A DNA stretch of 64,000 bases from Patescibacteria group bacterium (lineage in GTDB: Bacteria; Patescibacteriota; Microgenomatia; PFEM01; JAHIFH01), in NCBI GenBank assembly GCA_035529375.1, contig DATKWU010000009.1, forward strand, positions 223,124 through 287,123. Reading direction: 5' to 3'. This document shows positions 56,134-56,205 of the stretch, in pieces; the first letter of the stretch is position 1, and each line of letters opens with the position of its first letter. The notes beneath the pieces are model-generated. The model was not told where the DNA came from. It did no database searches and was given only the letters and a program-made list of their open reading frames with translations. The translations under genes and the position numbers were made by a program.

Positions 56134-56205
56134 GGCCCAGTACTCGAGTAGCTCAGAGAACTGTCTGCAAAACAGTTAACGCGGGTGCAACTCCCGCCTG
56201 GGCCT
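56134..56205 (+). tRNA. tRNA-Cys(GCA)-like gene with non-canonical D- and T-loops
   Basis: 7-bp acceptor GGCCCAG/CTGGGCC; anticodon arm ACTGT-CTGCAAA-ACAGT (U33, GCA, A37); T-arm GCGGG-TGCAACT-CCCGC; 4-nt variable loop. D-arm has only 3 bp and lacks G18G19; T-loop position 55 is G; no encoded CCA. Confidence 0.5.

Follow-up and report, generated by a model that had tools for sequence, protein, structure and literature searches.

Uridine 55 of the T loop, present as pseudouridine, and G18 of the D loop are usually taught as near-universal in cytoplasmic transfer RNAs (tRNAs), where TruB and TrmH act on them. In the canonical elbow, whose T loop reads UUCRA, G19 pairs with C56, G18 lies between purine 57 and A58 and is bonded to pseudouridine 55, and U54-A58 closes the T loop (PMC4810234). 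[quoted passage not shown] G55 does have precedents in T loops, namely in a staphylococcal tRNA-Gly, in tRNA-Pyl and in the tRNA-like element of turnip yellow mosaic virus (TYMV). The staphylococcal example is a non-proteogenic tRNA-Gly that serves cell-wall synthesis, lacks pseudouridine and reads TGC or TGT at the place of the T-loop TTC (PMC7826273). In the TYMV crystal structure (Colussi et al. 2014) the association of D and T loops is nearly identical to that of tRNA, according to a review (PMC4810234). Here we analyse a stretch of 64,000 nucleotides from a Patescibacteria genome (contig DATKWU010000009.1, positions 223,124 to 287,123; hereafter the window), in which a tRNA-Cys(GCA) gene on the plus strand has A18 and G55 where G18 and U55 are expected.

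ARAGORN called a tRNA-Cys(gca) at 56134-56206 on the plus strand, the sole tRNA found in the 64-kb window, and the Rfam tRNA model RF00005 matched 56134-56205 with 56.7 bits against a gathering threshold of 29 (E = 1.4e-9 over the whole window), the alignment running the full length of the model (positions 1-71 of 71). The gene comprises 72 nt and ends at discriminator U73; CCA is absent from it, and CAAAAA follows U73 directly. Its minimum free energy was -30.7 kcal/mol, with z = -3.66 relative to shuffled sequences. Variant tRNA-Cys of syntenic relatives scored 57.2-60.7 bits with the same model and the canonical tRNA-Cys of contigs L228 and L144 scored 55.9 and 60.2 bits, respectively; that of contig L180 was called by ARAGORN yet gave no match in the Rfam gathering run, for which speed filters are probably responsible. 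The sequence and its covariance model alignment contain the features of a cysteine tRNA, that is, the GCA anticodon, U33, A37 and U73 as well as a G13.A22 mismatch and pyrimidine C21. U73 is a major determinant for the cysteinyl-tRNA synthetase (CysRS), and the T at 56205 that encodes it was invariant in 61 of 61 aligned tRNA-Cys of the same G55 type, as was A22. In bacterial tRNA-Cys, position 21 is typically a pyrimidine and 13 and 22 form a purine.A mismatch (PMC7566577). The cell requires a tRNA-Cys because the long open reading frames (ORFs) of the window use cysteine codons, 63 among 10,329. The segment 56134-56205 merits annotation as tRNA-Cys; as a gene it is unremarkable, and standard tools recognise it for what it is.

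The cloverleaf is complete, with 20 of 20 stem pairs intact and G15-C48 also present. The acceptor stem GGCCCAG/CUGGGCC (56134-56140 with 56198-56204) has 7 bp, and all seven pairs show double compensatory changes among the 61 family members; U8 and A9 are both present. In the D arm (56143-56158) AGUAGCUC stands between C10-U11-C12-G13 and A22-G23-A24-G25; C10-G25, U11-A24 and C12-G23 form Watson-Crick pairs and G13.A22 is mismatched, leaving a D loop of 8 nt without GG that reads A14, G15, U16, A18 (56150), G19 (56151), C, U and C21. The anticodon arm (56160-56176) has the strands ACUGU and ACAGU and a loop of C32, U33, G34, C35, A36, A37 and A38 at 56165-56171, with GCA at 56167-56169, and it is followed by a variable region of 4 nt, UAAC. 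The T arm (56181-56197) is formed by GCGGG and CCCGC (G49-C65, C50-G64, G51-C63, G52-C62 and G53-C61) and closes a UGNRA-type loop of U54 (56186), G55 (56187), C56 (56188), A57, A58, C59 and U60, a loop identical to that of TYMV and of the RF00233 consensus. The original prediction had already described the GC-rich 7-bp acceptor stem, the anticodon arm with U33, GCA and A37, the 5-bp T stem, the 3-bp D stem, the 8-nt D loop without GG and the G at position 55, and each of these was found where it had been placed. It had also proposed a compensatory loss of G18G19 and of position 55, of which only part stood. In the alignment to related tRNA-Cys the gene has A18 and G55 in place of G18 and U55 and otherwise resembles a tRNA-Cys; AG occupies the place where sister tRNAs have GG (e.g. 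AAGUAGCUAA versus AAGUGGCUAA), and therefore only G18 has been replaced and G19 and its partner C56 are kept. Of the consensus elbow positions, G19, U54, C56 and A58 are thus retained and 18 and 55 deviate. G19-C56, U54-A58 and purine 57 are unchanged, and the oddity is confined to the elbow, where D and T loops dock.

The gene belongs to a sizeable family. When each GTDB species, represented by one genome, was scanned for CUGCAAA (the Cys anticodon loop) together with GGUGCAACUCC (the T arm), at least 120 matches were obtained, and 107 among the matches listed were ARAGORN tRNA-Cys with that T arm. All counts given here, from genome and metagenome scans alike, are samples among the matches listed and do not represent a census. 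The 80 titles listed comprised 40 Saccharibacteria, 13 other Patescibacteria (Paceibacterota, Doudna-, Lipton-, Jackson-, Kaiser- and Nomurabacteria), 6 Verrucomicrobiota, 2 cyanobacteria and a few others, and the D loop took the form A-G-Y-A-G... in all listed tRNA-Cys with a UGC-type T arm. When 61 distinct G55-type tRNA-Cys, including that of the window, were aligned to the cloverleaf, 99.8% of cells were paired and both-sided changes were seen in 18 of the 20 stem pairs; none of 500 shuffles matched these pairing and covariation values, which collapsed when the register was slid. Therefore, the G55-type tRNA-Cys are selected, folded tRNAs.

Positions 18 and 55 covary. A metagenome scan in which D and T loops were left free, the only criteria being the anticodon loop, a GGCC...GGCCU acceptor and the two G-C pairs that close the T stem, listed 98 distinct GGCC-type tRNA-Cys, of which 49 combined G55 with AG, 46 combined U55 with GG and none was mixed (Fisher p = 3.2e-28), the loop classes being taken from ARAGORN arm calls and a simple GG/AG test that left ~6% of tRNAs as 'other'. 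Many pairs differ only in their loops, for example AAGUAGCUAA with UGCAAAU versus AAGUGGCUAA with UUCGAUU. The same held for the pooled 735 unique tRNAs of all fetched loci, with 487 U55/GG and 197 G55/AG tRNAs and only five mixed types (three U55/AG and two G55/GG). A rough neighbour-joining tree with both loops masked required ~15 changes of state, and the closest pairs of opposite type were 91-93% identical outside the loops. Therefore, the swap has occurred repeatedly, with positions 18 and 55 changing in concert.

The swap is also unevenly distributed among isotypes. On the contigs with a G55-type tRNA-Cys, 120 of 125 neighbouring tRNAs had a canonical elbow, which indicates that the swap is largely specific to tRNA-Cys in these lineages; in the sample drawn without regard to the loops, the G55 type made up about half of the tRNA-Cys compared to 8 of 277 other tRNAs. 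Occasional A18/G55 cases were found in Leu(UAA), Tyr, Phe and Pro tRNAs, and in Saccharibacteria the variant tRNA-Cys is a member of ordinary clusters of tRNAs (Ala, Leu, Cys, Phe, Gly). On three metagenome contigs (L144, L167 and L183) a canonical tRNA-Cys that is window-like outside the loops adjoins a tRNA-Leu(UAA) with A18/G55, a pattern which shows the swap shifting between isotypes among related genomes. The outer pair 19-56 covaries too, as U19-A56, C19-G56 and A19-U56 were all found. We observed U19-A56 in a D loop AGUUGUUUA with T loop UUAGAGU, C19-G56 in GAAUUGCUAUA with UUGGAGU and A19-U56 in GAGCGACUUA with UUUGACU; the loci with a 19-56 pair other than G-C include L007, L050 and L058 (Saccharibacteria tRNA-Gly GCC), L135, L159 and L176 (tRNA-Leu UAA) and L170 and L209 (tRNA-Cys).

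How might such an elbow be built? U54-G55-C56-A57-A58 fits the U-G-N-R-A pentamer, and the observed 18/55 covariation agrees with the rule that pairs an intercalating adenosine with the G at position 2 of UGNRA loops. Within a 501-base region around the gene the only other Rfam match with E <= 1 was to RF00233, the tymovirus tRNA-like structure, at 20.6 bits and below the threshold of 40, compared to 94-96 bits for genuine members. In this family, which was compared through TYMV and two related viral sequences, the consensus D loop contains a conserved C-A-G-U and the T loop is invariably U-G-C-A-A-C-U; the TYMV sequence, GCCAGUUAGC ... GGGUGCAACUCCC, has the same pair of D-loop AG and T loop as the window tRNA. 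Membership of RF00233 was nevertheless rejected, given the sub-threshold score, a likeness that goes no further than the T arm and the AG of the D loop, and an acceptor that is an ordinary 7-bp helix and not a pseudoknot. By analogy with these loops, A18 would intercalate and bond G55, and the normal L shape and the flat G19-C56 face would be retained. The gene would be transcribed as its own unit ending at a downstream hairpin and U run; the transcript would then be trimmed and, because CCA is not encoded, receive CCA from the CCA-adding enzyme, after which CysRS would charge it by way of U73 and the GCA anticodon and the tRNA would read UGU and UGC codons. With A18 and G55 in these places, neither pseudouridine 55 nor Gm18 can be formed in the mature tRNA.

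The genomic setting is chromosomal. The window encodes nusA, infB, rpsO, pnp, dnaK, groEL and metG, along with FtsK, an RNase J-like protein, HrcA, DnaJ, MurJ, two PcrA/UvrD-like helicases and many glycosyltransferases, and alaS, leuS, rpoB and TsaD lie just beyond its edges. Its GC content is flat along its length, and neither a phage or mobile-element family nor a Fem-type family was found among the ~30 window ORFs scanned, which included all those flanking the tRNA. A divergent PEGA/SH3 gene stands on one side of the tRNA and an M23 peptidase gene on the other. The same locus is present in several assemblies, and the order GT4, UbiA, PEGA (on the opposite strand), tRNA-Cys, M23 is common to the window and five metagenome contigs, with synteny extending through VTT, GroEL and GroES in L206. 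Protein identity to the syntenic contigs ranges from ~70% down to ~30% and is 45-70% for the relatives that carry the variant. An A18/G55 tRNA-Cys occupies the syntenic slot in L160, L180, L206 and L129, that of L160 being nearly the same as the window's, and L228, the most distant syntenic contig, has a canonical tRNA-Cys (GG / UUCAACU) in the same slot. The gene is orthologous to these tRNA-Cys by position, and since the variant is kept in syntenic relatives and a canonical tRNA-Cys takes its place in L228, it is most likely the housekeeping tRNA-Cys.

The score like that of canonical relatives, the cysteine features, the covarying family and the shared locus together lend support to the view in the original prediction of an 'unusual but functional Cys tRNA'. 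We therefore regard it as very probable that the gene is the working housekeeping tRNA-Cys of this bacterium with a variant elbow; its expression, its charging and its status as the sole copy are inferred. Some points count against this view. No further tRNA was found in ~82 kb (the window and ~10 kb on each flank), the contig being at least 234 kb long, and a second, canonical tRNA-Cys may lie outside those ~82 kb. A scan for the sigma-70 consensus found no promoter upstream of the tRNA, and the putative A18-G55 contact is drawn by analogy. Furthermore, the classic bacterial UGC T loop is that of the staphylococcal non-proteogenic tRNA-Gly (PMC7826273), and the neighbours of the window gene are envelope genes (GT4, UbiA, PEGA/SH3 and the M23 peptidase).

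These last two points, together with a tRNA survey that covers ~82 kb of the genome, favour an alternative in which the gene is a specialised non-proteogenic tRNA-Cys that works off the ribosome, for example in envelope synthesis, and a separate canonical tRNA-Cys serves translation. However, the T stem has G49-C65, C50-G64 and G51-C63 rather than the weak staphylococcal set and resembles the combinations of PMC7826273 that bind EF-Tu tightly; G51-C63 is kept in 53 of the 61 family members, and G19-C56 is retained. The canonical tRNA-Cys in the same slot of L228 and the position of the Saccharibacteria variant inside ordinary tRNA clusters likewise count against this alternative, and we consider a non-proteogenic tRNA, the most serious of the rival explanations, very improbable.

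A housekeeping tRNA-Cys also accounts better for the data than a decaying pseudo-tRNA that has lost conserved elbow bases. Decay would be in keeping with the change of both G18 and U55, which are among the most conserved positions of tRNA, with a CCA that is not encoded and with the lack of a consensus promoter. On the other hand, the stems are intact and covary, which excludes a pseudogene in our view, the anticodon loop, U8, A14, G19, C56, U54, A58 and U73 are all kept, and the changes at 18 and 55 occur as a pair in hundreds of tRNAs. The Rfam score is on par with that of canonical relatives, and the variant is maintained in syntenic relatives whose proteins are only 45-70% identical. We thus hold decay to be very unlikely.

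Equally doubtful is a phage or mobile-element origin, whereby the gene would be an extra tRNA and not the host's own tRNA-Cys. It is true that phage arrays in IMG/VR hold G55-type tRNA-Cys and that verrucomicrobial loci hold whole sets of G55-type tRNAs, but the window gene is a lone tRNA within ~82 kb of housekeeping genes, the gene order is conserved in relatives, the GC content does not vary and the ORFs scanned, flanking ones included, belong to no phage or mobile family. Least probable of all is the suggestion that the element is a tRNA-like 3' handle or processing signal for the transcript of a 45-codon short ORF (sORF, 55862-55999) that lies on the same strand and ends 134 nt upstream: the weak, sub-threshold RF00233 match that would favour it stems from the T arm that both share, the acceptor is an ordinary 7-bp helix, a long hairpin and U run (56032-56090) stand between sORF and tRNA, and the sORF, this hairpin and a palindrome are all missing where syntenic relatives keep the tRNA. 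As alternatives to a functional tRNA, the original prediction had offered a pseudo-tRNA and a tRNA-like 3' handle of the sORF transcript, and an intact, covarying tRNA with a hairpin between it and a sORF that relatives lack bears out neither.

Verrucomicrobiota and phages carry the same elbow in other settings. On nine 8-kb stretches (L008, L019, L035, L039, L047, L065, L086, L090 and L111) we found 7-15 tRNAs of many isotypes, nearly all of the G55/AG type; most of these sets are from Verrucomicrobiota, and L047 is a metagenome-assembled genome (MAG) of Akkermansia muciniphila. Some sets show further oddities, such as T loops like AGCGUUA, first pairs C1-G72 or U1-A72, and C-G or U-A at 19-56. 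The genes around the sets look chromosomal (ThiG, PfkB and GH5 in L047; SIR2, PEP mutase and a metallophosphoesterase in L086), and in L065 a canonical tRNA-Gly(CCC) stands beside the G55 set. The Verrucomicrobiota sets may represent a parallel, non-canonical tRNA set. In IMG/VR, phage arrays of 9-21 tRNAs (L245-L259) had A18/G55 in tRNA-Cys and mostly canonical elbows in the rest, sometimes with 1-3 more A18/G55 tRNAs (Ile, Met, Leu, His, Tyr), and in L250, of 275 kb, 12 of 13 tRNAs were of the G55 type.

Upstream of the tRNA, the sORF has a GGAGAA ribosome-binding site and a hydrophobic predicted peptide and matched no Pfam family. The long hairpin that follows it on the plus strand has arms at 56032-56050 and 56065-56083 and then a U run, and further on, at 56101-56116, lies the perfect 16-bp palindrome TTTCTGAGCTCAGAAA. 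The original prediction had placed the tRNA directly after a terminator and this palindrome. The palindrome is present as described; the hairpin with its U run is a plausible terminator of the sORF transcript, although a simple terminator scan made no call on it and relatives lack it. Indeed, none of these three elements, sORF, hairpin or palindrome, occurs in L160, L180, L206, L129 and L228, in all of which the tRNA directly adjoins the divergent PEGA gene. The window contains five perfect 16-bp palindromes, where shuffled sequences had 1.6 on average and at most 5, and we rejected the palindrome as an operator, as it is not conserved and the number of such repeats is not statistically unusual. 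It possibly lies within the promoter region of the tRNA, where TTGCTT-17-GAAAAT, noted by eye, spans it as a candidate promoter.

Downstream of the tRNA, the plus-strand hairpin AUCCUCUC...GAGAGGAU with its U run (56241-56271; terminator scan match at 56245-56264 plus ATTTTTTGTG) is likely the intrinsic terminator of the tRNA transcript, and a hairpin with a U run occurs at the equivalent place in L160 and L206. The interval between tRNA and M23 gene (56206-56292 in the window, ~5131-5240 in L160 and ~1869-1950 in L206) also holds a promoter-like site and, no more than ~10 nt on, the strong hairpin and U run; these sites are TGC-TATAAT at 56224-56232 in the window, TTGACT-17-TATGAT in L160 and TTGACT-17-TATAAT in L206. 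A promoter that fires straight into the hairpin suggests that the latter could alternatively be a leader or attenuator of the peptidase gene. We rejected the idea that the hairpin (56241-56266) masks the ribosome-binding site of a GTG start at 56272 for the M23 gene, because that frame meets a TAA at 56287, ahead of the M23 ATG at 56293. A perfect 22-bp palindrome, TTACGGTTAAATTTAACCGTAA, with a minus-strand flag from the terminator scan, lies at 56333-56354 in the 5' part of the M23 ORF. Elsewhere in the window, IF2 (10503-11951, minus strand) has 482 residues and is missing the long N-terminal region of most bacterial IF2.

In the open-access literature we found no description of a concerted A18/G55 swap in bacterial tRNAs that serve translation, nor anything on its preference for tRNA-Cys or its wide spread. 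We tentatively propose, as a serious possibility that still falls somewhat short of the probable, that the A18/G55 elbow, a UGNRA T loop of the riboswitch type with an intercalating adenosine, is a recurrent and unrecognised natural alternative architecture for translating tRNAs which jointly shows four properties: many gains or reversions, a preference for tRNA-Cys (about half of the GGCC-type tRNA-Cys versus ~3% of their neighbours), presence in phage arrays, and whole parallel sets in Verrucomicrobiota including the A. muciniphila MAG. Lacking pseudouridine 55 and Gm18, such tRNAs may then differ in folding, in quality control or in recognition by elbow-reading enzymes, toxins or immune sensors. 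The data show that many bacteria, chiefly Patescibacteria and among them Saccharibacteria of the human mouth and gut, exchange both bases in a tRNA that is most likely essential, and that phages and Verrucomicrobiota make the same swap in some or many of their tRNAs. These tRNAs offer a natural test of the purpose of the 18-55 contact and of pseudouridine 55, and they connect the elbow of tRNA with the general rule for UGNRA T loops. Annotating A18/G55 genes as pseudogenes would be unwarranted, and the data suggest that engineered tRNAs could adopt this elbow.

To conclude, the window tRNA can be set against the systems it most resembles. It shares with the canonical tRNA-Cys of E. coli and B. 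subtilis the GCA anticodon, U33, A37, U73, a 7/4/5/5 cloverleaf and a 4-nt variable region, as well as a purine.A at 13.22 and a pyrimidine at 21 (PMC7566577), G15-C48, G19-C56 and U54-A58; it differs from them in A18, in G55 and in a D stem of C10-G25/U11-A24/C12-G23 instead of the usual G10-C25 type. With the valine-accepting tRNA-like structures of the TYMV type (RF00233) it has in common the pair of loops and a T loop closed by G-C pairs, but the viral element forms the 3' end of an RNA genome and has a pseudoknotted acceptor arm and a valine anticodon, whereas the window tRNA is an ordinary free-standing gene in a DNA genome. Like the UGNRA T loops of riboswitches it has a U-G-N-R-A pentaloop and an 18/55 covariation that fits the adenosine-G2 rule; in riboswitches, however, these loops make intramolecular contacts, and the version described here occurs in a tRNA with a Watson-Crick 19-56 pair. 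The staphylococcal non-proteogenic tRNA-Gly is similar in its UGC (or UGU), the former found here at 56186-56188, and in lacking pseudouridine there, but it has a T stem weak for EF-Tu (A49-U65, U50-A64, A51-U63) and dihydrouridine at 19, coexists with proteogenic isoacceptors and is limited to staphylococci (PMC7826273). In contrast, the window tRNA has a G-C-rich T stem and G19-C56, and it replaces a canonical tRNA-Cys at an orthologous locus. Finally, tRNA-Pyl and animal mitochondrial tRNAs also depart from the G18G19 and T-psi-C consensus, but they do so with shortened D loops, altered stems or no docking of D and T loops (PMC7609411), whereas the window tRNA keeps canonical loop sizes and the other tertiary positions and changes a single covarying pair.

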